From: Escherichia phage LF82-10
Reading direction: 5' to 3' (one strand)
Sequence record: PV660453
Length of the DNA stretch: 52,895 bases
Under the pieces are notes generated by a model, which was not told the origin of the DNA, ran no database searches, and saw nothing but the letters and a program-made list of their open reading frames with translations. Positions 3,507 to 25,937 of this stretch are shown one piece after another. How positions within the stretch are numbered: the stretch's first letter is position 1; every line of letters begins with the position of its first letter. The position numbers and the translations under genes are program-made.

Positions 3507-4248
3507 ACAGTGGCGCTATCCAGAAGCAAGCGAGCGGGAATTATCCCGCTCTCTGGCAACGTTCGCGGGTGAGCTTATCGTGTTTGCTCGCGATCAACTG
3601 GATAAGATGAAGTTTGACGCTAGCGCCGATGAGATAGATCAGGCAGAAAGCGAGCTTGAAGATTACGCCGCGTATCTGATCGCAGGTCTGATGGCCTTGC
3701 TTCCATCGCTGGCGCTGAAGATTTACCGCTTCAACTCGCAGCAGTTTATTGATGTTGCCAAATCTGCTGGCGGGAAAAAGAATCCGGTTGTGGTTCTGCT
3801 TATCGCTCTGGGATATAACGCTAACGAGCCGTGGTATCGTGAGAAAGAAGATAACTGGCTATCTCTCACAGAGGCAAGTTATCGTAAGCTGGCGAATGAT
3901 ATCATTGCTGACTGGTCTAACACCGTAAGGATGGAAAACGCCAAAGGCAAGAGCCGTGAGTATATCGACGATGTGATTGAGCAGCGTTACAAGGTGTATA
4001 CTGGCTGGACGGTAAACAGATCTCGTGGAATCGTTGCGACTTGGAATAGTTTACTGATGCGCGCGCGCCTGGAAGATTCAGGAGTGACGCATTATTTTTG
4101 GCATGGTAAACTTGACGAACGCGAGCGCCTTAAGCACTTGTTATGGGAGAACAAACGAATCGCCATAAACAGCGATCACGTATTCCCAGGTGAAGAATAC
4201 GGTTGCCGATGCTGGGCAACTCCTGACTTTTACAATATCGAGGAATGA
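3484..4248 (+). CDS. minor head protein (Mu F / SPP1 gp7-like head morphogenesis)
   Basis: 254 aa after portal; C-terminal FPGEEYGCRCWATPDF-type motif typical of Mu F-like proteins; overlaps portal stop. Confidence 0.5.
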   Translation: MKVQGIAKQWRYPEASERELSRSLATFAGELIVFARDQLDKMKFDASADEIDQAESELEDYAAYLIAGLMALLPSLALKIYRFNSQQFIDVAKSAGGKKNPVVVLLIALGYNANEPWYREKEDNWLSLTEASYRKLANDIIADWSNTVRMENAKGKSREYIDDVIEQRYKVYTGWTVNRSRGIVATWNSLLMRARLEDSGVTHYFWHGKLDERERLKHLLWENKRIAINSDHVFPGEEYGCRCWATPDFYNIEE

Positions 4249-5375
4249 AAATGACCACTAAACAACGCTATGATAGCGCACCAATCAAGGCACGATTCGA
4301 TTCAAACGGATATCTTCATGATGAGCCAATCATCGCGCGAATCGGCATTCAATCGTACATGAAACCAGATGGAACCATGCAGCGTGAATTTCGCCCGGCT
4401 AGCGAGGTATTCAGCGAGAAGTCAATGAAGTCTTTTCAAGGGATGCCGATTGTTGAAGGTCACAAGGAGATCACCGTTAAGAACGCGCGAGGTGAGGTTG
4501 TTGGCGCGGTGAGCGGAGCGGCGCGCCGTGACGGAATCGGCTTGCTGTGCCCGATCGTAATTCACGATGGTGAATCAATCGAAAGCGCCAAACGAGGCGA
4601 TGCTGCTGAATTATCCGTAGGCTACAAAACAAACGATATTCATCGCGCCGGGTGGGGCAACGTGGTTACTGGTGAGTACGTATTCAAAGACGATGCGGAA
4701 ATGATGGAGAAGATTTTCCCCAGCGGAACCACGATGAGTGACGAATGGGAAGAGTTCGACGTGCTTCAAACAAACATCGTGCCCAACCACATCGCGAAGG
4801 TTCACAAAGGCCGCGCCGGAATCGCTCGTTTAAACCTTGACGGCTCCGAGGAAATCAAGTACGATTCAAGCGTTGACAATCAACCATCAAAGGAAAATGT
4901 TATGACCGTTAAAATTAAGATCGACTCCGCAGAAGTGGAAGTAACACAGGATGTGGCAAACCACATCGAAGCGCTGAAGGCAACCGCAACGGCAGCCAAA
5001 ACAAAGGCTGATACTCTGGAAGCAGAGCGCGACTCACTGAAAGTTAAGGTTGACGGCCTCCCGGCACTGATTGAAGCCGCGATCGCCGAAGCGAAAACAA
5101 AAGCCGATGCAGAAAACGAAATCAAAACTTTCGCCACTGAAATTGGCGTTAAGTGTGACGGCCTGGATAACAAAGCGATTAAAGTTGCAGTTATCAAAGA
5201 GGTGTTAGGTATCGACGCAGCAGAGAAAAGCGATGCTTATATTGATCAGTCATTTGAAATCGCGCGCGATTCTGATAAGATGGCGGCTAATCGCGTTAAA
5301 ATCTCCGGCTCTAACGGCAAGGAAGACGGCGCTGATACTGGCATCCCTGATGCTCAGGCTCGTTTCCGCAAGTAA
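4245..5375 (+). CDS. capsid scaffolding protein (possibly protease-scaffold)
   Basis: 376 aa; C-terminal Ala/Lys/Glu-rich coiled-coil-like region (EALKATATAAKTKADTLEAERDSLKVKV); position between portal/MuF and capsid genes. Confidence 0.5.
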   Translation: MKMTTKQRYDSAPIKARFDSNGYLHDEPIIARIGIQSYMKPDGTMQREFRPASEVFSEKSMKSFQGMPIVEGHKEITVKNARGEVVGAVSGAARRDGIGLLCPIVIHDGESIESAKRGDAAELSVGYKTNDIHRAGWGNVVTGEYVFKDDAEMMEKIFPSGTTMSDEWEEFDVLQTNIVPNHIAKVHKGRAGIARLNLDGSEEIKYDSSVDNQPSKENVMTVKIKIDSAEVEVTQDVANHIEALKATATAAKTKADTLEAERDSLKVKVDGLPALIEAAIAEAKTKADAENEIKTFATEIGVKCDGLDNKAIKVAVIKEVLGIDAAEKSDAYIDQSFEIARDSDKMAANRVKISGSNGKEDGADTGIPDAQARFRK

Positions 5376-6019: not shown

Positions 6020-6047
6020 TTGACCGTTTAGCAAAAAGTGCTATTAT
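6020..6047 (+). promoter_or_regulatory. sigma70-like promoter of major capsid gene (TTGACC-16-TATTAT) with TAGCA-box in spacer
   Basis: hexamers at 6020-6025 and 6042-6047; box TAGCAAAAAGTGCTA at 6029-6043. Confidence 0.5.
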
Positions 6048-6090
6048 TGACGCGTGACCTAATCACGCATTCAATCAAAAGGAAAATGTT

Positions 6091-7044
6091 ATGACCATGA
6101 AACTTGATTCATTCGAGCAGAACGAAATTACGGTAGGCCTTCGCAAGATGGGTGTTGCGGCAAGCAAAGCGGATCGCCTGGGTATCTGGACTGTAGAGCA
6201 GATGAAGCAGACGCTTAAGCGTCAGTATGAAGCGGCTTATCCCGAAACATCAGCGCTGGCGCTCTTCCCGGTTACAACCGAAATTGCACCAACAACCCGC
6301 ATCTTCGAATACATGAAGATTGACGGCGTGACCATGGCGAAAATCATCGCGGATTATACTGACGATCTGCCTCTGGTTGATGCGACCCATAGCCTGGAAA
6401 CAGGCCGCGTACACCGCCTGGGTAACGCGTGGATGATTTCCATTGACGAAATCAAAACTGGTGCGGCGCTGGGTTCTTCCCTGTCTGACCGCAAGGCAAC
6501 ACTGGCGCGCGAAGCGCACGAAACGCTGGTGAATACTCTGGTGTTCCAGGGTTCCAAGCCTCACAAAATTCTGTCTGTGTTCGACAACCCGAACATCACC
6601 CGCGTAACTTCAGCGGCTGGCGCGTGGGCTGACCCTGAAAAGGCAAGCGACGAACTGACGGATCTGATTGAGAAAATGGAAACCCTGACCAAAGGCAAGC
6701 ACAAGATCACCGATATTGTGATCCCGCCTTCTCAGCGTAAGATCCTGGCTAAGCGCATGCCGGAAACCACGATGAGTTACTTGCAGTGGTTTGAGTCTCA
6801 GAACGGCGGTATCACAATTAGCTCAATCTCTGAGCTTGAAGATATCGACGGCATCGGTACCAAAGGCATTCTTGCCTACGAGAAAGACCCGATGAACATG
6901 AGCATCGAGATCCCGGAAGCATTCAACATGCTCCCAATGCAGCCTAAAGACCTGCATTTCAAAGTGCCTTGTACGTCCAAGACTACTGGCCTGATCGTTT
7001 ATCGTCCTCTGACGATTATCTTGCTGGTTGGCGTAGGTAAGTAA
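6091..7044 (+). CDS. major capsid protein
   Basis: 317 aa; own promoter (TTGACC-16-TATTAT, 6020-6047) and flanking terminators imply high expression; size and position. Confidence 0.65.
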   Translation: MTMKLDSFEQNEITVGLRKMGVAASKADRLGIWTVEQMKQTLKRQYEAAYPETSALALFPVTTEIAPTTRIFEYMKIDGVTMAKIIADYTDDLPLVDATHSLETGRVHRLGNAWMISIDEIKTGAALGSSLSDRKATLAREAHETLVNTLVFQGSKPHKILSVFDNPNITRVTSAAGAWADPEKASDELTDLIEKMETLTKGKHKITDIVIPPSQRKILAKRMPETTMSYLQWFESQNGGITISSISELEDIDGIGTKGILAYEKDPMNMSIEIPEAFNMLPMQPKDLHFKVPCTSKTTGLIVYRPLTIILLVGVGK

Positions 7045-15726: not shown

Positions 15727-18700
15727 ATGAATAAAAAAGTGTTAGTGCATGGCTCAAAGGGTGGTTCACCAAAGCCGCACACGCCACAGGAAATGGAAGA
15801 CAACTTAATTTCAATCAACAAAATTAAGGTGCTTCTGGCTATTTCTGACGGTGAGATTGATCCTGATTTCAGCCTTAAAGATCTGTATCTCAATGACGTT
15901 CCTGTGCAGTCGAAAGAAGGAACGATGAACTACGATGGCGTGATTGCCGAGTTTAGACCGGGAACGCAAACGCAATCTTACATTCAGGGTTTTACTGACA
16001 CGGCAAGCGAGGTGACTGTAAACCGAGCGCTGAAGCAAGATAACCCTTTCATCTTCCCGGTAACGAACAAAAGCATTTCAGCGGTACGCGTTAAGATCTT
16101 CATGCCTCGCGGCGTAAAGACAGAATCAAATGGAGATATGGTTGGCGTTAGGGTTGAATACGCGATTGATTTCGCGGTTGATGGTGGATCATACCAGGAG
16201 GTTCTTAAGGACGTAATCGACGGTAAGACGATGAGCGGCTACGACAGAACCAAACGGATTAACCTTCCTGAATTCAACGATCAGGTATTGGTGCGCGTGC
16301 GTCGTGTAACGATGGATTCAACAGACGCAAGATTGATTGATGAGATCAGCGTGCAATCATATGCTCAAGTTGTCGATGCTAAATTCCGTTACCCCCTGAC
16401 CGGGCTGTTATACGTTGAGCTGAACAGCGCAATGTTCCCACAAATGCCAAATATCAGCGTCAAGAAAAAATGGAAGCTGGTGAAGGTTCCGAGCAACTAC
16501 GATCCAGTAGCGCGCGAGTATCACGGCACATGGGATGGCAGTTTTAAACAGGCATGGAGCAATAACCCTGCATGGGTGCTTTACGACTTGATCACCAATC
16601 AGAGATACGGACTCGACCAGCGCGAATTAGGGATTGATGTTGATAAGTGGAGCTTGTACGAAGCCGGGCAGTATTGCGATCAGCTCGTGCCGGACGGCAA
16701 AGGCGGAACAGAACCGCGCTACCTGTGCGACGTTGTGATTCAGTCTCAGATTGAAGCGTACACGCTAGTGCGTGATATTTGCTCTATCTTCCGTGGGATG
16801 AGCTTTTGGAACGGTGAAAGCCTATCTATCGTGATTGACAGGCCGCGTGATGCGTCTTACATCTTCACGAATGATAACGTGGTGGGCGGTTCATTCTCCT
16901 ACACGTTCGCCAGTGAAAAGAGCATGTACACAACATGCAACGTGACGTTTGACGATGAGCTGAACATGTACCAGCAGGACGTTGAAGCTGTGTTTGATCT
17001 GGATGCGTCTATTCGATTCGGGCACAACCCGACAAGCATAACGGCGATCGGATGCACGCGACGGAGTGAGGCAAACCGCCGAGGGCGCTGGATTCTGAAA
17101 ACGAACTTGCGCAGCACGACAGTTAGCTTTGCTACCGGGCTTGAAGGTATGATCCCAATGGTGGGCGATGTGATTGCGGTTGCGGATAACTTCTGGCAAA
17201 GCAATCTGACGCTTTCCCTTTCCGGGCGATTGATGGAGGTTTCAGGCATTCAGTGCTTCACTCACTTCCGAGTTGATGCGCGGCCAGGTGATTTCATTAT
17301 CGTTAACAAGCCTGATGGTAAGCCAGTGCGCCGCACGATTGCTAACGTATCAGCAGACGGAAAGACCATTGAACTAAATATCGGCTTCGGCTTTGCGGTT
17401 CAGCCAAACGCGGTATTCGCGATTGACCGTCAAGATCTGGCGCTTCAGCAGTATGTTGTTACCGGAATCAGCAAGGGTGATGGAGACGAGGAGTTTACTT
17501 ACTCGATCACGGCGGTTGAGTACGACCCGAACAAGTATGACGAGATTGATTACGGCGTTAACATCGACGACAGGCCGACGAGCATCATCGACCCTGACAA
17601 CATGCAGCCGCCAGAAAATATCAGCGTTTCGTCATATTCCAGGATCGTGCAGGGCATGAGCGTTGAGACGATGGTTATCGGGTGGGATAAGGCGCAGTAC
17701 GCGAGCACATACGATGTTCAATGGCGCAAGGATAATGGTAACTGGATTAACACTCCACGCACCGCAAACACAGAGGTTGAGGTTGAAGGCATCTATGCTG
17801 GCGTTTACCACGTCCGAGTAAGATCGACTTCAGCGGCTGGTAACTCTTCGCCATGGTCAAGCGTAGTGACGGTGAGCTTAACTGGCAAGGTTGGAAAGCC
17901 AGGAGCGCCGACGAGCATCACGGCGAGCACGGATGAGGTGTTTGGTATTCGCGTTAAGTGGGGTATGCCAGCAGGATCAGAGGACACGGCCTACATCGAG
18001 CTTCACCAGTCGAAAGACGGAACGCCGGACAATGCAAGCCTGTTAACGATGATTCCTTATCCTCAGTTTGAATACTGGCACGCGGTGCTCCCGGCTGGTT
18101 ATGTGAACTGGTATCGGGCGCGAGCAGTTGACCGAATCGGCAACGTCTCTGATTGGTCTGACTTCGCACGCGGCATGGCTTCGGATGATGTGGATCAGAT
18201 TTTGGACGTTATCAAGATTGACATTGAGGACAGCGAGATTTTCAAAGAGCTTGCCGAAAATGCAGTTGATACCGCCAACAAGATCAAAGACCAGGCGCAG
18301 ACGGATATTCAGAACGCATTAGCGAATGACTACAACCTGCAATGGACTCGCAAGCAGAACGGCGCACGTAAGGCCGAATACGGTCAAGCGGTGATTCTCA
18401 TTGCCAATGAGACAGAAGCTCGTGTAGCGGCGATTGAGGAGCTTAGAGCGTCAATCAATGACGATATCATTGCTCAAATCAAAACGATTCGAGAAGCGGT
18501 AGCAAATGAGGAGGAGGCACGAGTTAAGGCGGTTCAGGAGCTTGACGCTAAGTTTGCCGGGCAGATTGGAGACTTGCAGACAGCAACAGAGGCGAGCGTA
18601 TCGCGTCTGGATGAGGCGATCGCAAATGAGTCAGAGGCAAGAACTCAGGCAATTTCACAACTCGATGCGAAGTTCCAGGGCGTCATTGATGGAGTTAAGG

Positions 18701-19278
18701 CCGACACTGAAGCCAGCATTACGCGAGTTGATAAAGCCATTGCTAGCGAGACTCAAGCCAGGGTTGAGGCAGATACAGCGCTTGGTGTTCGGGTTGGTAA
18801 CACTGAATCCGCCATCACGCAAAAGCTTGATTCATGGATTCAGAACGGGCAGCCGGGAGCGTCGTATAACGTCAAGTTGGGTATCAAGTACAACGGGCAG
18901 GAGTATAGCGCAGGGATGGGGATGCAGTTGGTTAGCGATCAGTATGGCGTTAGATCGCAAATCCTGTTTGACGCTGACCGATTCGCAGTTGGCAAGATTG
19001 AGAATGGCTCTATTCGTCAGTTGCCGTTTGTGATTGAGGGTAATCAGGTATTCATTCGTGATGCGCTGATTAAAAACGGCTCCATCACTAACGCAATGAT
19101 CGGAAACGTCATTCAGTCAAACAACTATGTTGCTGGTTGGGCTGGTTGGAGAATGGACAAGAACGGAAACCTTGAGATTAACGGCAGCGCCGGAAACGGA
19201 AGGCTGACCATTAACAACAACATCATTGCCGTATATGATGGTAACGGTGTGTTAAGAGTTCGAATGGGATTGTTCTAA
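15727..19278 (+). CDS. tail tip host specificity protein (lambda gpJ-like)
   Basis: 1183 aa; largest tail gene after K/I; C-terminal ~22-aa tandem repeats (EARxxAxxxLDAKFxG); own extended -10 promoter after terminator. Confidence 0.85.
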   Translation: MNKKVLVHGSKGGSPKPHTPQEMEDNLISINKIKVLLAISDGEIDPDFSLKDLYLNDVPVQSKEGTMNYDGVIAEFRPGTQTQSYIQGFTDTASEVTVNRALKQDNPFIFPVTNKSISAVRVKIFMPRGVKTESNGDMVGVRVEYAIDFAVDGGSYQEVLKDVIDGKTMSGYDRTKRINLPEFNDQVLVRVRRVTMDSTDARLIDEISVQSYAQVVDAKFRYPLTGLLYVELNSAMFPQMPNISVKKKWKLVKVPSNYDPVAREYHGTWDGSFKQAWSNNPAWVLYDLITNQRYGLDQRELGIDVDKWSLYEAGQYCDQLVPDGKGGTEPRYLCDVVIQSQIEAYTLVRDICSIFRGMSFWNGESLSIVIDRPRDASYIFTNDNVVGGSFSYTFASEKSMYTTCNVTFDDELNMYQQDVEAVFDLDASIRFGHNPTSITAIGCTRRSEANRRGRWILKTNLRSTTVSFATGLEGMIPMVGDVIAVADNFWQSNLTLSLSGRLMEVSGIQCFTHFRVDARPGDFIIVNKPDGKPVRRTIANVSADGKTIELNIGFGFAVQPNAVFAIDRQDLALQQYVVTGISKGDGDEEFTYSITAVEYDPNKYDEIDYGVNIDDRPTSIIDPDNMQPPENISVSSYSRIVQGMSVETMVIGWDKAQYASTYDVQWRKDNGNWINTPRTANTEVEVEGIYAGVYHVRVRSTSAAGNSSPWSSVVTVSLTGKVGKPGAPTSITASTDEVFGIRVKWGMPAGSEDTAYIELHQSKDGTPDNASLLTMIPYPQFEYWHAVLPAGYVNWYRARAVDRIGNVSDWSDFARGMASDDVDQILDVIKIDIEDSEIFKELAENAVDTANKIKDQAQTDIQNALANDYNLQWTRKQNGARKAEYGQAVILIANETEARVAAIEELRASINDDIIAQIKTIREAVANEEEARVKAVQELDAKFAGQIGDLQTATEASVSRLDEAIANESEARTQAISQLDAKFQGVIDGVKADTEASITRVDKAIASETQARVEADTALGVRVGNTESAITQKLDSWIQNGQPGASYNVKLGIKYNGQEYSAGMGMQLVSDQYGVRSQILFDADRFAVGKIENGSIRQLPFVIEGNQVFIRDALIKNGSITNAMIGNVIQSNNYVAGWAGWRMDKNGNLEINGSAGNGRLTINNNIIAVYDGNGVLRVRMGLF

Positions 19279-19282
19279 TAGA

Positions 19283-19312
19283 AAAGGGAGCCTTGCGGCT
19301 CCCTCTTTTTTT
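19283..19312. terminator. bidirectional terminator between J-like gene and Cor-like gene
   Basis: GGGAGCC-TTGC-GGCTCCC flanked by A-run upstream and T-run downstream. Confidence 0.6.
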
Positions 19313-19643
19313 ACATCACTTTATTGTAGATAACCGGGCTTCGGCTGGTTTGCTGGGTAATCATGTCAAGCTTGTATTCAGCGCCGCGATTCCACTCGAA
19401 GCGTAGCGTATAAGTGTTTACGTCGCCGTAGCACATTACGTGTTTGAACTTGCGCAGGTGCTTATCAAATATCACGTTTGTGCTTTCTTCAATATTCACC
19501 GTCCGATCCTGGCAGTTTACAACCGCCACGGTTGAGCCAGTAAGAGACATTCTGGAAGCGTCAACCGGATATCCGATATTAACGTTCAAAGCCATAGCGT
19601 TTAAAGGAGCTAAGAGAGCCATAGCGAGCATGATTTTTTCCAT
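19311..19643 (-). CDS. secreted protein, possible Cor-like superinfection exclusion factor
   Basis: ATG at 19643 (SD GAGGAA); signal-peptide-like N-terminus MEKIMLAMALLAPLNAMA; sits right after the J-like gene on the opposite strand; function speculative. Confidence 0.3.
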   Translation of the reverse strand: MEKIMLAMALLAPLNAMALNVNIGYPVDASRMSLTGSTVAVVNCQDRTVNIEESTNVIFDKHLRKFKHVMCYGDVNTYTLRFEWNRGAEYKLDMITQQTSRSPVIYNKVM

Positions 19644-19702
19644 TGGTGTTTCCTCGATTCGTTTATTTAAATTGATTATATCCACCAATCAGGGCGCGTG
19701 CT

Positions 19703-19717
19703 TAGCAATTCGTGCTA
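19703..19717 (-). promoter_or_regulatory. TAGCA-box (TAGCACGAATTGCTA) upstream of Cor-like gene
   Basis: -10 TATAAT at 19675-19680 (minus), 37 bp from box start; adjacent to stop of 19718..20368. Confidence 0.55.
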
Positions 19718-20368
19718 TTAGTTCCACCCAAGGAATCGAGCCATTGGAATCTTTAGGTTTCCGCGACCGTTGAAAATATCATTAAACCCTCGCTGATTTC
19801 GTCTGATCCATGTAGTCTGCAACTCCGAGCCAGTCCAGCGCATGAGGTTGCCAGAGTAACCAGAGGCAACGCCATCCGTTGACATTTCACCCATGCAGGA
19901 CTCCCACAGAAAGAATGGGTTGTAACCAGGTGATACGCTGGCAACGTTACCCTCAAGAGGCCAATTCCCGGCAACCTCAAGGAAGCCAGTTACACGAGGC
20001 ATTGAGGCAGCGCCCAAAGCAGACCAGATCAGTTGCCCGGAACCGTCGAACACGTCAAGCACGCCAGATGGAAAGTTTGCGTTTCTGGTTGTCCTGATCA
20101 CGCGGATTGAGTTTGGTAGGAACATATCAGATCCCGGAAACCCCCACGCGCCGTTAGAAAGAAATTGCACCCAATGCAAATATCCGTCTTGCTTCCTCGT
20201 GTTTTGGTTTAGGTAAGCCAGTGAGCTTATGTTGCCAAAAGGTGTGTTTAGGTTGTAGTCACCAGTATTTAAATATGACGGGTTGAAAGATGAGTGGTAG
20301 ATCGTGTGTTTCTGATCTGAGTTAATCATCATCGCCCCGGCGTTATTGTATACCTCAAAACCAGGCAT
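19718..20368 (-). CDS. hypothetical protein (MPG-paralog A)
   Basis: 216 aa, Asn/Gly/Ser/aromatic-rich; SD GAGGGGG; N-terminus paralogous to the next gene. Confidence 0.45.
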   Translation of the reverse strand: MPGFEVYNNAGAMMINSDQKHTIYHSSFNPSYLNTGDYNLNTPFGNISSLAYLNQNTRKQDGYLHWVQFLSNGAWGFPGSDMFLPNSIRVIRTTRNANFPSGVLDVFDGSGQLIWSALGAASMPRVTGFLEVAGNWPLEGNVASVSPGYNPFFLWESCMGEMSTDGVASGYSGNLMRWTGSELQTTWIRRNQRGFNDIFNGRGNLKIPMARFLGWN

Positions 20369-20377
20369 ATTGCCCCC

Positions 20378-20677
20378 TCAGTTAAATTTGTAAATTTCGA
20401 TATCCATCGTCACATCGTTAAACGGGTTGCTTGTTGGTAGGTAGATAACATCAACAGCATTCTCACGCGTTACGCAAGCGTAAGCACTCCCTATGTAGAT
20501 GTTTGCGTATTTGATGCAAGCAAACGAGTTGTAACCGTTTATTCCGACAACAGCAAAAGACACGATCGAAGTCGAGCGCGGGAACACGATTTGCTGACGA
20601 TGCACAAAGCGAGTGCTGAAATCTCCGAGATCCACAATCAGATTTCCCGACCCATCCCATGCTTGTAAACCAGGCAT
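20378..20677 (-). CDS. hypothetical protein (MPG-paralog B)
   Basis: 99 aa; SD GAGGTGG; N-terminus MPGLQAWDGSGNLIVD aligns with MPGFEVYNNAGAMMIN of the downstream gene. Confidence 0.45.
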   Translation of the reverse strand: MPGLQAWDGSGNLIVDLGDFSTRFVHRQQIVFPRSTSIVSFAVVGINGYNSFACIKYANIYIGSAYACVTRENAVDVIYLPTSNPFNDVTMDIEIYKFN

Positions 20678-20795
20678 AATGCCACCTCGTGAGTTTGTTT
20701 GATTGAGTGCAAATAATACACCAGCGAGCAGACAAAATCAAAGTCAACATGTCGTTCCTGTAGTTAGCTGTTAAGAAAATCACTTTCCGGCGATT

Positions 20796-20814
20796 TCGAT
20801 ACACGCAACTACAG
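20796..20814 (+). repeat. direct repeat TCGATACACGCAACTACAG, copy 1
   Basis: identical 19-mer recurs at 21013-21031; related copy AATACGCACTACAAC at 42082-42096. Confidence 0.7.
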
Positions 20815-20838
20815 AAAACTACAGCGTTATACATTGCG

Positions 20839-20880
20839 TAAGTATATATATAATAAGGGTTTATCTAATATTATTATTAT
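20839..20880 (+). repeat. AT-rich element (TAAGTATATATA...GGTTT...ATCTAAT), copy A
   Basis: homologous to 41900-41950. Confidence 0.6.
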
Positions 20881-21012
20881 TACTATATTCATGTTGTAGT
20901 TAGTGTAACGGTATCGTTTGGTGATTCCCGGATATCTTTTCGAATAGTTGAGTTAATTGTGTGGTTATTAGGATGCCGATACCTGGCTACCCCTCCGCAA
21001 TCCGCGTTAAAA

Positions 21013-23503: not shown

Positions 23504-23536
23504 AAAAATAAAGGAGCCTTTCGGCTCCTTTTTTAT
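23504..23536. terminator. bidirectional terminator between ssb and tail fibre gene
   Basis: AAAAATAAA-GGAGCC-TTTC-GGCTCC-TTTTTTATTT. Confidence 0.6.
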
Positions 23537-25899
23537 TTCAGCAATAACGACTCAAGTTTAGCAAGGCGCTCTTCCATTTCCTCCATTCTGTTACCCATGT
23601 AAACCATAGCACAGGCCATATCAGTAAGCATGACGTTTGAATCAAGAGCTAGCGTATCGTCCTTAAATCCAGTCTCGATCTGCCTGGCAACGTACTCCTC
23701 ACCATTCTCGTTGACTCCGATAACATCTTCAAAGATCGGAGCGCCAGGGACTACTTTCACATACTGACTATCAACTTTATTCAAGTCCTGAGCAATCAGA
23801 CCGAATCTCTGTGTGTCAGATCCCTTATACTTGAACATGGTTGGGAGCCACTGCATTACGCGATCATAGCTCTCCTTTCCTTCGGTGTATTTGATATCCC
23901 ACTTAAGATCCCGGTCAGACGTTGGCGCTTTCTGGAATGTATACCCCCCATCCCATCCTCCACCCTGACCCCATGAGATAATATCTGATGATGGTGCATG
24001 GAATTCAAATCCGCGATGGTACGCACCATCACCAAGCATCTTAATTACTGCGCGAGGCCATCCGTTGTTCCCGCTAGAAATCATACCAAGAGAGGTATTC
24101 ATTCGATACCCGCCAGTTGATGTGGTTGCCCCTGAGATCAATGAAGCATATCCGGCATCATTACCCGTTACATCACCAGCAAAGAACGTACTCCCCATGT
24201 AATCATTTGGCTGCGCCCAACCTCCTTGAGTTAACTTACCAAGAAACCCCCTTGGAGAAGATATGTGACCGCCGTATGAGTTTATGAATTTAAACTCCTT
24301 CCAGTCACTTCCTTGGTTGTTCACTCCGATCTTGAAGTGATCAATATCAGTGCCACTACCGCGAACCCCCCCAATCTGCCAGTAACCAGAGTACCAGTTA
24401 CCTTGAACCAGGTTAACCCAACTATTAACAGAGCCATCACCAGCAGCGTTTTGAATCAGGATGTTTTTGTTTCCGCCACTCTGAGTTGAAACAACGATCG
24501 ATTTACCCTGCTTTGCCTCTACGTTTCCGTTTGTTGCAACCAGAGCGCCGCCGCTAATCGTTCCGACGGCTGTCAGCGATGCAACTCCGGTAATGTTCCC
24601 CGCCTCATCAAACTGATAGTAGTTCCCCTTTCCTCCAGCCGTGTTTGCCGTGTGAATCGTTGTCTTTACAACGCCGCCTTGTAGTTCATTGTAAAATCTT
24701 GAGTTTGATTGCAGCGTTGCGCCGTCAGCAGAAAGCCTTTTACTCTCAATCAGCCCCCCACTAGTTGCTGAGCCAAGTGTTGTAGCCTCCACGCCTCCAA
24801 ATCTCACCGCTTGACCCGAGCCGATACCAAGATTGTTTCTTGCTCCGTCAGCAGTTGTTGATCCAGTGCCACCAGATCCGATAGGGATCGGGATTACATT
24901 TCCGTTACTATCCTGCCACTGGAAAATCCCATCATCGCCAATCGTCAGCCTTTTTGTTCTATCTGGCGTGCTAATGTAGTTACGCGTTCCAATGTGGCGC
25001 AGCCAGTCAAGATCAAGGTTCGTCCTCGCGGCTTGTACGTCAGTAAGATCAGATAGGTTATTTGCCTTCTTTAGCTGTTCGTCAGGGTTAGCCGTTGCTG
25101 CGCGGTCTGCTTCAGCCTTGGCTCGTGCTGCATCGTCACGAGCGGCGGCGGCAGATTGCCCGGCGCTGGTTTCGCTGTTTGCTGCATTCGTCTCGCTTAC
25201 CCTGGCGGCATCCTTGCTGGCTCCGGCTTGGGTTGCGGCAACTTCGGCGGCTTGACGATGCGCGGCAGCTTCGCCGTTAGATTGAGCGGCTGAGCTTGCG
25301 CTATTACCCGCATTTGTCTCGCTAGTCTTCGCATTGAATGCAGAATCGGCGGCAGCGTTCTTTGCGCTTGTTGCGGTTGCAGCGTCAGCGGCGGAGCTAG
25401 ATGCAGATGCGGCAGCGGCGTTTTTATCTTGCTGTGCAGACTGAGCAGATCCGGCGGCGGCGTTCTTGCTTGCCTCAGCTTCGTTTGCGTTAACTTCAGT
25501 ACGATCAGCATCAACGCGAACGGCAGACTGAAGATCTTTCAGCTCTTGCAGGTTAAAGTTCTTGAAGAAATCCATAGCCTCCTCGATCACAGTTTCCTTG
25601 CTTTGGTAGTAGCGCAGAGTTTCAGCCACATCTTGAGCAAGGCCATCAACAGTGATTGAGTCATGCAGCAGGATTACATAGTTCGTACCATCCGGCACAA
25701 CTGCATCATCCGTTTGGATCGCTCGCATTTCCGTGTCACTCACGATCGCGGAAATAGTAACCAGCGTTAGTGGTTGAGTTAAAAACACCATCGTTGCCCC
25801 AACGCGAATCAGAGACAGCTTGTCTTGCCATTTCGTATCAACGCCAGTTACAACGCCGTTAGCGGCCAATCCCGCCGTTCCTCTACGATAAATCGCCAT
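23533..25899 (-). CDS. tail fibre with C-terminal intramolecular chaperone (S74-like) domain
   Basis: ATG at 25899 (SD AGGTG); Ala/Ser/Asn-rich low-complexity segment; C-terminal region (DRDLKWDIKY...LIAQDLNKV...LAKLESLL) resembles auto-cleaving fibre chaperone domains. Confidence 0.75.
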   Translation of the reverse strand: MAIYRRGTAGLAANGVVTGVDTKWQDKLSLIRVGATMVFLTQPLTLVTISAIVSDTEMRAIQTDDAVVPDGTNYVILLHDSITVDGLAQDVAETLRYYQSKETVIEEAMDFFKNFNLQELKDLQSAVRVDADRTEVNANEAEASKNAAAGSAQSAQQDKNAAAASASSSAADAATATSAKNAAADSAFNAKTSETNAGNSASSAAQSNGEAAAHRQAAEVAATQAGASKDAARVSETNAANSETSAGQSAAAARDDAARAKAEADRAATANPDEQLKKANNLSDLTDVQAARTNLDLDWLRHIGTRNYISTPDRTKRLTIGDDGIFQWQDSNGNVIPIPIGSGGTGSTTADGARNNLGIGSGQAVRFGGVEATTLGSATSGGLIESKRLSADGATLQSNSRFYNELQGGVVKTTIHTANTAGGKGNYYQFDEAGNITGVASLTAVGTISGGALVATNGNVEAKQGKSIVVSTQSGGNKNILIQNAAGDGSVNSWVNLVQGNWYSGYWQIGGVRGSGTDIDHFKIGVNNQGSDWKEFKFINSYGGHISSPRGFLGKLTQGGWAQPNDYMGSTFFAGDVTGNDAGYASLISGATTSTGGYRMNTSLGMISSGNNGWPRAVIKMLGDGAYHRGFEFHAPSSDIISWGQGGGWDGGYTFQKAPTSDRDLKWDIKYTEGKESYDRVMQWLPTMFKYKGSDTQRFGLIAQDLNKVDSQYVKVVPGAPIFEDVIGVNENGEEYVARQIETGFKDDTLALDSNVMLTDMACAMVYMGNRMEEMEERLAKLESLLLK

Positions 25900-25922
25900 T
25901 GTCAACACCTCTTGTTAGTAAA

Positions 25923-25937
25923 TAGCACGAATTGCTA
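25923..25937 (+). promoter_or_regulatory. TAGCA-box (TAGCACGAATTGCTA) over predicted start site of tail fibre transcript
   Basis: minus-strand -10 TATAAT at 25944-25949 lies upstream of box; operator-like position. Confidence 0.45.

Follow-up and report, generated by a model that had tools for sequence, protein, structure and literature searches.

A probable YncD-type host-recognition cassette behind the tail-tip gene of Escherichia phage LF82-10

What are three small leftward genes doing directly behind the tail-tip gene of a T1-like phage: do they block the receptor or recognize it? The question is raised by Escherichia phage LF82-10 (sequence record PV660453), of which we analysed a stretch of 52,895 nucleotides (nt), hereafter the window. 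Its J-like tail-tip gene (15727-19278, plus strand; 1183 amino acids (aa) according to the open reading frame (ORF) call) is followed by three genes on the minus strand, here named X (19311..19643; annotated as coding sequence XUQ13447, a 110-aa precursor), L (19718..20368; 216 aa), and S (20378..20677; 99 aa). All three are listed as hypothetical proteins in the GenBank annotation of PV660454. An initial annotation of the window, made from the letters alone, described this leftward block as a secreted Cor-like protein next to a tandemly duplicated pair and suspected a joint role in receptor blocking or superinfection exclusion. The three minus-strand ORFs are all present. We propose that the block and the last ~66 codons of J probably form a horizontally exchangeable host-recognition cassette, the YncD variant of its kind, in which S and L would belong to the tail tip and X would serve exclusion.

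Going by its gene order, the phage is a T1-like siphovirus (Drexlerviridae): the tail genes lead to the J-like tip gene, after which come X, L, and S in leftward orientation and then exonuclease VIII, Erf, SSB, and a leftward lateral tail fibre gene. In this family, terminal-receptor specificity has been attributed to allelic "bona fide RBP loci" (RBP, receptor-binding protein) directly 3' of gpJ, which come with cognate exclusion proteins (BASEL study; Maffei et al. 2021, PMC8594841). YncD is tabulated there as the terminal receptor of phages IsaakIselin (Bas10) and JohannLBurckhardt (Bas11). In the case of phage IME347, deletion of yncD abolishes infection and adsorption, complementation restores both, and infection is TonB-independent. 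A YncD-specific family of RBP loci is already recognised in the literature (PMC8594841; bioRxiv 10.64898/2026.04.02.716166).

By the published criterion, a locus belongs to this type when its proteins share >30% identity, at near-full coverage, with proteins of YncD-dependent phages. L lies above that threshold throughout, with 89.8% identity to its counterpart in Bas11, 66.7% in IME347, and 59.9% in Bas10, each at 100% coverage. The corresponding values are 84.8%, 49.0%, and 63.7% for S and 89.1%, 58.6%, and 85.2% for X. All three phages have the same X/L/S gene order, and their loci agree with ours in position, number of genes, orientation, and a sequence box 5' of X (described below), at 49-90% aa identity. 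The block (19311-20677) also stands directly downstream of the gpJ homolog, which ends at 19278. Since homologs of L, S, and X occur in the YncD-dependent Bas11, Bas10, and IME347, the block fits a YncD-type "RBP locus downstream of gpJ", and this homology makes YncD, an outer-membrane TonB-dependent transporter, the very probable receptor.

The limits of the cassette follow from nucleotide comparisons. LF82-10 and the Escherichia phages LF82-11, -12, -19, and -40 show 100% identity over 19200-20900, and all three genes share 82-84% nucleotide identity with Bas11 and the Klebsiella phages Samwise, Skenny, and mtp17-21; in Bas10 and Henu7, the nucleotide match is confined to a part of this region. 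In 60-nt windows against Bas11, identity is 65-97% (mostly at least 75%) over 19080-20699, compared with 47-72% before 19080 and 38-55% after 20700. These steps at 19080 and 20699 delimit the exchanged unit as the last ~66 codons of J (19081..19278, plus strand) plus X, L, and S. The backbone of Bas11 is unlike that of LF82-10 (J and flanks are ~50-75% identical), whereas the cassettes are alike; the cassette has thus moved by recombination.

If the cassette carries host recognition, which of its products reach the virion? The surroundings of S and L in other phages point to virion receptor-binding proteins rather than exclusion proteins. In the temperate phage HK639, S and L follow J on one strand, with S overlapping the stop codon of J and L that of S. 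The order in KW1E_UTAR is J, S, L, and lateral tail fibre gene, all on the plus strand. In the N4-like Acinetobacter podovirus Presley, a large tail protein ending in ...LITVYDDNNVLRVRMGLW is followed by overlapping genes for 106 and 224 aa. Among the RBP genes of this family, the leftward orientation seen in LF82-10 is nothing unusual, as rtp44, the experimentally confirmed LptD-type RBP gene, also points leftward in phage Rtp. Asn, Gly, and aromatic residues make up 10.6%, 11.6%, and 13.9% of L and 8.1%, 7.1%, and 14.1% of S. Neither protein has a signal peptide or membrane segment that we could find (the maximum 19-mer hydropathy is 1.38 for S and 0.96 for L). We thus regard L as a likely receptor-binding protein; S, a candidate tail-tip adaptor or accessory protein, may also be part of the virion, at chances just short of even.

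S and L are translationally coupled, with the TGA stop codon of S lying inside the ribosome-binding site of L (GAGGGGG), 9 nt 5' of the L ATG. The region upstream of this operon (20678..20741, minus strand) holds a weak sigma-70-like site, TTGATT-17-TATTAT, and is poorly conserved among relatives. Two side observations concern relatives of these genes. Cronobacter phage ENT39118 encodes an S homolog of ~95 aa (~3706-3993, plus strand) that starts at the J stop codon and is missing from the GenBank annotation, and an HK639-type S-L-X cassette occurs as prophage DNA in 3 of 5,426 complete E. coli genomes, all of them pig isolates, at 82-93% identity.

Are S and L then copies of one gene, as the initial annotation inferred from their similar N-termini and Shine-Dalgarno (SD) regions? 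The N-terminal likeness is genuine but short. Among 17,458 pairs of 14-residue windows from S and L, the best score is a tie between S1-14 versus L1-14 and S4-17 versus L104-117, and an N-terminal or internal pairing also ranks at the top in IME347, HK639, and PJNS034. What is shared is a hairpin motif of ~11-14 residues, phi-x-phi-[YWF]-[DN]-x-x-G-x-phi-phi, present in three clear copies. The window-pair and profile comparisons place the N-terminal ones at residues 4-14 of both S (LQAWDGSGNLI; 20636..20668, minus strand) and L (FEVYNNAGAMM; 20327..20359, minus strand). The internal one, at residues 104-114 of L (LDVFDGSGQLI; 20027..20059, minus strand), is the best match to the S N-terminus by BLASTP and hhalign. 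A looser copy forms the final 18 aa of J (IIAVYDGNGVLRVRMGLF; 19222-19275, plus strand). The motif as a regular expression has only two further matches in 44,427 aa of six-frame stop-free segments, a count that is partly circular since the expression was built from the same sequences. Profile comparison of the motif region of S with that of L gives P values of 0.0009-0.004 (hhalign), and residues G3 to D8 of S are invariant across the S family alignment.

Beyond the motif, the likeness ends. The pairwise comparison that the initial annotation had proposed as a check gives nothing significant past it: BLASTP of S against L returns E=1.7, the two family profiles match at 5% probability in hhalign, and extended families reach 1-23% with only 11-41 columns around the motif aligned. 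A comparison of the N-terminal with the C-terminal half of L yields P=0.057 (hhalign). Searching 1.84 billion representative proteins with a hidden Markov model (HMM) of the S family recovers 42 clusters, none of which is an L-type (~216 aa) protein; 38 of them consist of proteins of 66-116 aa, mostly with full-length matches, and three are large multi-repeat proteins. Paralogy over the whole length of S and L was rejected on these grounds, the motif being all they have in common. The resemblance of the SD regions fares no better as a sign of duplication. Of 49 nt in the ribosome-binding and start regions, 30 are identical between S and L in LF82-10, compared with 25-26 in Bas10, Bas11, and Henu7 and 11-18 in distant phages, and in Bas10 and Bas11 the two genes show no co-variation at residue 2 (P or S). 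Because this likeness fades in relatives, we consider it local and largely coincidental. A recent tandem duplication is thus unsupported.

Any duplication would be ancient and undetectable past the motif, since a 99-aa and a ~216-aa protein are already paired in phages as distant as the N4-like Acinetobacter podovirus. One could imagine that a unit of ~100 aa, consisting of a hairpin and a beta-sandwich, was once duplicated to leave S with one unit and L with two, all of which have since diverged past sequence detection except for the hairpin. We give this idea a minor share of the probability. Being a matter of origin, it would not conflict with the functional model, but it meets the negative comparisons just given (nothing significant past the motif, the L halves at P=0.057, and no L-type protein found by the S-family HMM), and the common matches of both proteins to generic beta-sandwiches are weak evidence. 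As a side observation, the very large proteins P0069, P0070 (~1,955 aa), and P0079 (1,380 aa) contain five repeated stretches that resemble the beta-sandwich body of S (profile positions ~28-94); a Pfam scan of P0069 and P0079 found Big_1 bacterial Ig-like domains in the former and no hits in the latter.

A different use for the motif is suggested by other phages. T1 carries J, gp32 (101 aa), and gp31 (229 aa), followed by cor on the opposite strand, and Bas07 is alike. This layout of J, a protein of ~100 aa, one of ~220-230 aa, and a small exported protein is that of the FhuA type, also represented by N15, HK022, and phi80. T1 gp32 starts with MAYGISTWDANG and has GISTWDANG at the position of the S motif, whereas gp31 starts with MSYGAFIDVNGNPF and has MAIWDASGKLV at residue 113. 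In this pair, the motif opens the small protein and recurs at about residues 105-115 of the large one, which also has a looser N-terminal copy. Outside the motif, S and L have no detectable homology to gp32 and gp31 (13 and 10 columns align, with P values of 0.0013 and 0.11). T1-like phages of both the YncD and the FhuA type, lambdoid HK639-like phages, and the N4-like Acinetobacter phage all show this motif layout. The motif could tentatively be seen as a beta-hairpin docking element that joins the parts of the tail tip, not as the trace of a recent duplication. The paper on FhuA attachment treats J itself as the RBP and does not mention gp31 or gp32.

Structure predictions are in line with a tail-tip location. 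The predicted model of L is all-beta and seems to come closest to a solved phage RBP, and the fold predicted for S, a beta-sandwich, resembles receptor-binding and tailspike beta-sandwich domains. As both models rest on shallow alignments and the beta-sandwich matches are generic, the fold evidence is supportive, not decisive. A Foldseek search of L against the PDB found nothing, and sequence searches of S, L, and X against Pfam, NCBIfam, and PDB gave nothing meaningful (no match at all for X), nor did the L-family profile match any PDB sequence. As an aside, the L-family proteins P0001-P0022 all carry the precomputed Pfam label PF28254.1, so that a curated family apparently exists. In the monomer model of L, residues 1-19 have a pLDDT (predicted local distance difference test) below 50, as might be expected if this stretch takes on order only when bound to a partner, and the internal motif (residues 104-114) reaches ~70, below the flanking regions. 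These low-confidence motif segments parallel the tail-proximal part of the Oekolampad RBP, for which, as for that of pb5, poor order has been noted (Dunbar et al., bioRxiv 10.1101/2025.07.07.663478).

The LptD-type systems differ from ours in several respects. Rtp44 and the Oekolampad RBP (Dunbar et al., bioRxiv 10.1101/2025.07.07.663478; PDB 9RPT) are single proteins of ~310 aa, where LF82-10 has a pair of 99 and 216 aa, and their receptor is LptDE; in the gene order of the Rtp44/Rtp45 locus, the exclusion factor comes first and the RBP second. Similarity to the T5 system (pb5/Llp, receptor FhuA) is very weak at the structural level, and genome location and protein sizes differ as well.

The division into two proteins leaves room for another role of S, namely that of an assembly chaperone for L, comparable to tail-fibre assembly proteins, which would stay outside the virion and leave L alone on J. 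In favour are the small size of S, its translational coupling to L, and the constant position of its gene directly 5' of that of L, and published descriptions call such partners merely 'accessory proteins'. On the other hand, it has the same N-terminal motif as L and the end of J and a fold like that of receptor-binding and tailspike domains, although neither point is decisive. We consider the chaperone unlikely, at somewhat under the weight given to ancient paralogy.

X, the third member of the proposed cassette, is a different kind of protein. As the initial annotation expected, it is a small secreted protein: the signal peptide analysis it had suggested identifies residues 1-18 (19590..19643, minus strand) as MEKIMLAMALLAPLNAMA|LNV, with a hydrophobic 11-mer (Kyte-Doolittle 2.48) and an A-x-A cleavage site, and S and L have nothing comparable. 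Signal-peptidase I is predicted to cut after A-M-A, and these residues (A16, M17, and A18) are nearly invariant in the homolog alignment. There is no lipobox cysteine; X and all 12 homologs of the Drexlerviridae type end the signal peptide with A-M-A followed by L/F-N. The mature protein would have ~92 aa (~10.6 kDa, pI 8.7) and contains a conserved domain with the invariant cysteines C44 and C71. X matches phrog_25729, to which PHROGs assigns no function. The start codon is the ATG at 19643, preceded by the ribosome-binding site GAGGA, and not a TTG farther upstream at 19688.

There are 43 phage records with homologs of X, exclusively of Escherichia and Klebsiella phages, in which X co-occurs with S and L. 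Those of HK639 and LLS are encoded on the strand opposite to the tail genes and have lipoboxes (LVAG|C and LASG|C), thus matching cor of T1 and Bas07 in both placement and type. Two observations on annotation should be added. The lipoprotein homolog of HK639 (6036-6398, minus strand) is absent from its GenBank annotation, and that of KW1E_UTAR (1982-2752) is annotated with 256 aa, of which the conserved domain makes up the last ~80 aa after an internal signal peptide, …AALVFSSLVSPAQA|EV; the protein is a fusion, or else its start has been annotated too far 5'.

X is a small exported protein encoded beside the RBP genes that follow J, as in T1 and Bas07, and it takes the position where T1 (J, gp32, gp31, cor) carries cor. 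By analogy with these systems, we lean slightly toward X being a superinfection-exclusion or receptor-masking factor. The epithet 'Cor-like' given by the initial annotation can be kept for its position and probable function; it does not extend to sequence, in which X has no similarity to T1 Cor, or to the lipobox, which X lacks here. The layouts also differ in orientation, as T1 has gp32 and gp31 rightward and cor leftward where LF82-10 has all three genes leftward, in the type of exported protein (T1 Cor is a lipoprotein, X is not), and in the receptor (FhuA versus YncD). Rtp45, the counterpart of SE_Oeko, is a lipoprotein of only ~6 kDa, compared with the soluble mature X of ~10.6 kDa, and Llp is likewise a lipoprotein. 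Both bind their receptors at the periplasmic face, LptD in the case of Rtp45 and FhuA in that of Llp.

Alternatively, X could have another task in the periplasm, for instance in anti-defence, in envelope remodelling, or in the timing of lysis, and be linked to the RBP genes only incidentally. Its lack of similarity to any known exclusion protein and its not being a lipoprotein here would agree with such a role, as would the phages in which X is unlinked from S and L, namely KW1E_UTAR (by ~29 kb) and KLB22 and KLB16 (by 16 kb). Yet X co-occurs with S and L even there, and only in Escherichia and Klebsiella phages, it lies within the co-transferred mosaic segment, and in HK639 and LLS it is a lipoprotein encoded on the opposite strand, exactly at the position of cor in T1 and Bas07. 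We judge this alternative rather improbable and retain the exclusion factor.

Transcription, too, would separate X from its neighbours. The initial annotation called X a box-driven gene, and the box, a 13-mer (CACGAATTGCTAA), stands at 19702-19714 as one of 14 copies with at most two mismatches in the window, where 1.8 are expected; none of 100 shuffles reached 14. The repeated element is this 13-mer, as the exact string TTGGTGGATATAAT is not repeated. At 11 of the 14 sites (19702, 25926, 26997, 30027, 31020, 39866, 42949, 45325, 46850, 47633, and 49892), the box comes directly after a stop codon; the copies at 20585, 33661, and 41783 are weaker. Most of the 11 have a -10-like hexamer 22 nt downstream, often over a GC-rich hairpin and ~70 bp 5' of the next start codon; at 25926, a terminator-like hairpin follows instead. 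Among the genes identified behind these boxes are those for a DNA methyltransferase and a primase, a small ORF followed by the polynucleotide kinase (PNK) gene, and other small ORFs. None of the 14 copies is located upstream of S or L.

In the 74-bp gap between L and X, the box follows right after the L stop codon and TATAAT (19675-19680) comes 22 nt on, so that the promoter-like element of X spans 19675..19714 on the minus strand. Box and -10-like hexamer are conserved 5' of X in Bas10, Bas11, Henu7, and IME347. The sequence between them varies: a GC-rich inverted repeat (AGCCCCG-N4-6-CGGGGCT) stands there in Bas10, Henu7, and IME347, whereas LF82-10 and Bas11 have a different, non-palindromic spacer of equal length. 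Because the distance between box and hexamer does not fit the -35/-10 spacing of sigma-70, the element looks like a phage-specific promoter or processing element. At its other end, X converges with J on a GC-rich hairpin (19285..19304; terminator scan, 8-bp stem with six GC pairs, then a T run), after which the minus strand reads TTTTCT. To judge from these letters, the hairpin is a probable bidirectional intrinsic terminator that would close both transcripts.

That the whole block is an exclusion or receptor-blocking module, with S and L acting at the envelope alongside secreted X, is very improbable: T1 gp32 and gp31 are annotated as an 'outer membrane protein' and a 'membrane associated protein', the KanT1 authors assume that cor-adjacent proteins relate to exclusion, and the three genes share one orientation opposite to the tail operon, but S and L lack a signal peptide, a membrane segment, and the box that drives X, stand inside the tail operon in HK639 and KW1E_UTAR (S even overlapping J in HK639), and have in L a predicted fold that seems closest to a solved RBP, and leftward orientation is the norm for RBP genes of the family, as rtp44 illustrates. 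Of the exclusion role that had been suggested for all three genes, only the part concerning X fits.

Farther along the window, the lateral tail fibre gene (23533-25908, minus strand) is 84 bp (28 codons, in frame) shorter than in PV660454 (LF82-11). The difference lies at about 25454-25460, at a 7-bp overlap within the gene. Owing to this difference, coordinates of the stretch past ~25.46 kb run 84 below the record coordinates.

Several points weigh against the cassette as we read it and should be set beside the evidence above. Concerning the receptor, the YncD assignment depends on 60-90% identity to three tested phages, and the families of L and S also occur in Cronobacter, Pantoea, and Acinetobacter phages, which makes the fold family wider than YncD specificity. 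Concerning the tail tip, we found no virion proteomics for any of these phages and, in the literature, nothing usable on that of NBD2, L matches Rtp44 at only 0.1% probability (hhalign of the L-family alignment), and the S/L pair of PJNS034 (65.7 kb; 3714-4666) is an exception to the synteny, lying not beside a tail gene but amid DNA polymerase and exonuclease genes and small ORFs. The C-terminal 44 aa of J were considered as a marker of a cassette-specific partner, but they recur in 899 phage records that cover many receptor types, and the idea was rejected for this reason. The promoter scan around the block stays at chance level, with four sigma-70-like sites where 3.9 are expected. Concerning exclusion, hhalign of the X-family alignment against T1 Cor gives 1.3% probability with only MKK aligned, X has no sequence similarity to Rtp45, and it is soluble here where Cor (T1), Rtp45, and Llp are lipoproteins.

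How would such a cassette work? S and L would be cytoplasmic proteins, translated in coupled fashion from a single leftward message, and they may come together at the far end of the J trimer, where the hairpin motifs of S, L, and J could serve as docking elements. L would then bind the extracellular face of YncD, and S might bridge or stabilise the assembly as an adaptor or accessory subunit. X would be transcribed separately, from the promoter-like box that it has in common with replication genes and other small genes, exported by Sec, cut by signal peptidase I, and probably disulfide-bonded. By analogy, it might bind YncD from the periplasm, whereupon infected cells and debris would stop adsorbing phages of this receptor type. 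Its job would equal that of Llp, Cor, and Rtp45.

The locus type itself has already been described by comparative genomics, and its S, L, and X proteins are uncharacterised everywhere. Measured against the literature that we found, four points appear to be new: the hairpin motif and the ~100/~220-aa architecture in common with T1 gp32/gp31, the structural link that modelling suggests between L and the LptD-type RBP, the predicted dichotomy between soluble and lipoprotein forms of X, and the exact mosaic boundaries, including the tip of J. More speculatively, and only as a possibility that we hold less likely than its opposite, the motif might be a general plug-and-socket code by which two-protein receptor-binding cassettes dock onto J-like tips. 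In that case, X might represent the first periplasmic exclusion factor for a TonB-dependent transporter that is soluble and not a lipoprotein, and one domain would exist as a lipoprotein in temperate phages and in soluble form in virulent ones.

LF82 is a Crohn's-disease pathobiont, and its phages are therapy candidates. If the use of YncD is dictated by the cassette, this would predict a route to resistance (loss of yncD) as well as combinations of phages without a common receptor. The limits of the cassette, 19080-20700 including the tip of J, indicate what would have to travel together to retarget a T1-like phage. The observations on motif and fold suggest concrete constructs for work on binding and exclusion and by cryogenic electron microscopy. 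Of the four receptor modules of the Drexlerviridae, the YncD-type RBP with its putative exclusion partner is the least studied.

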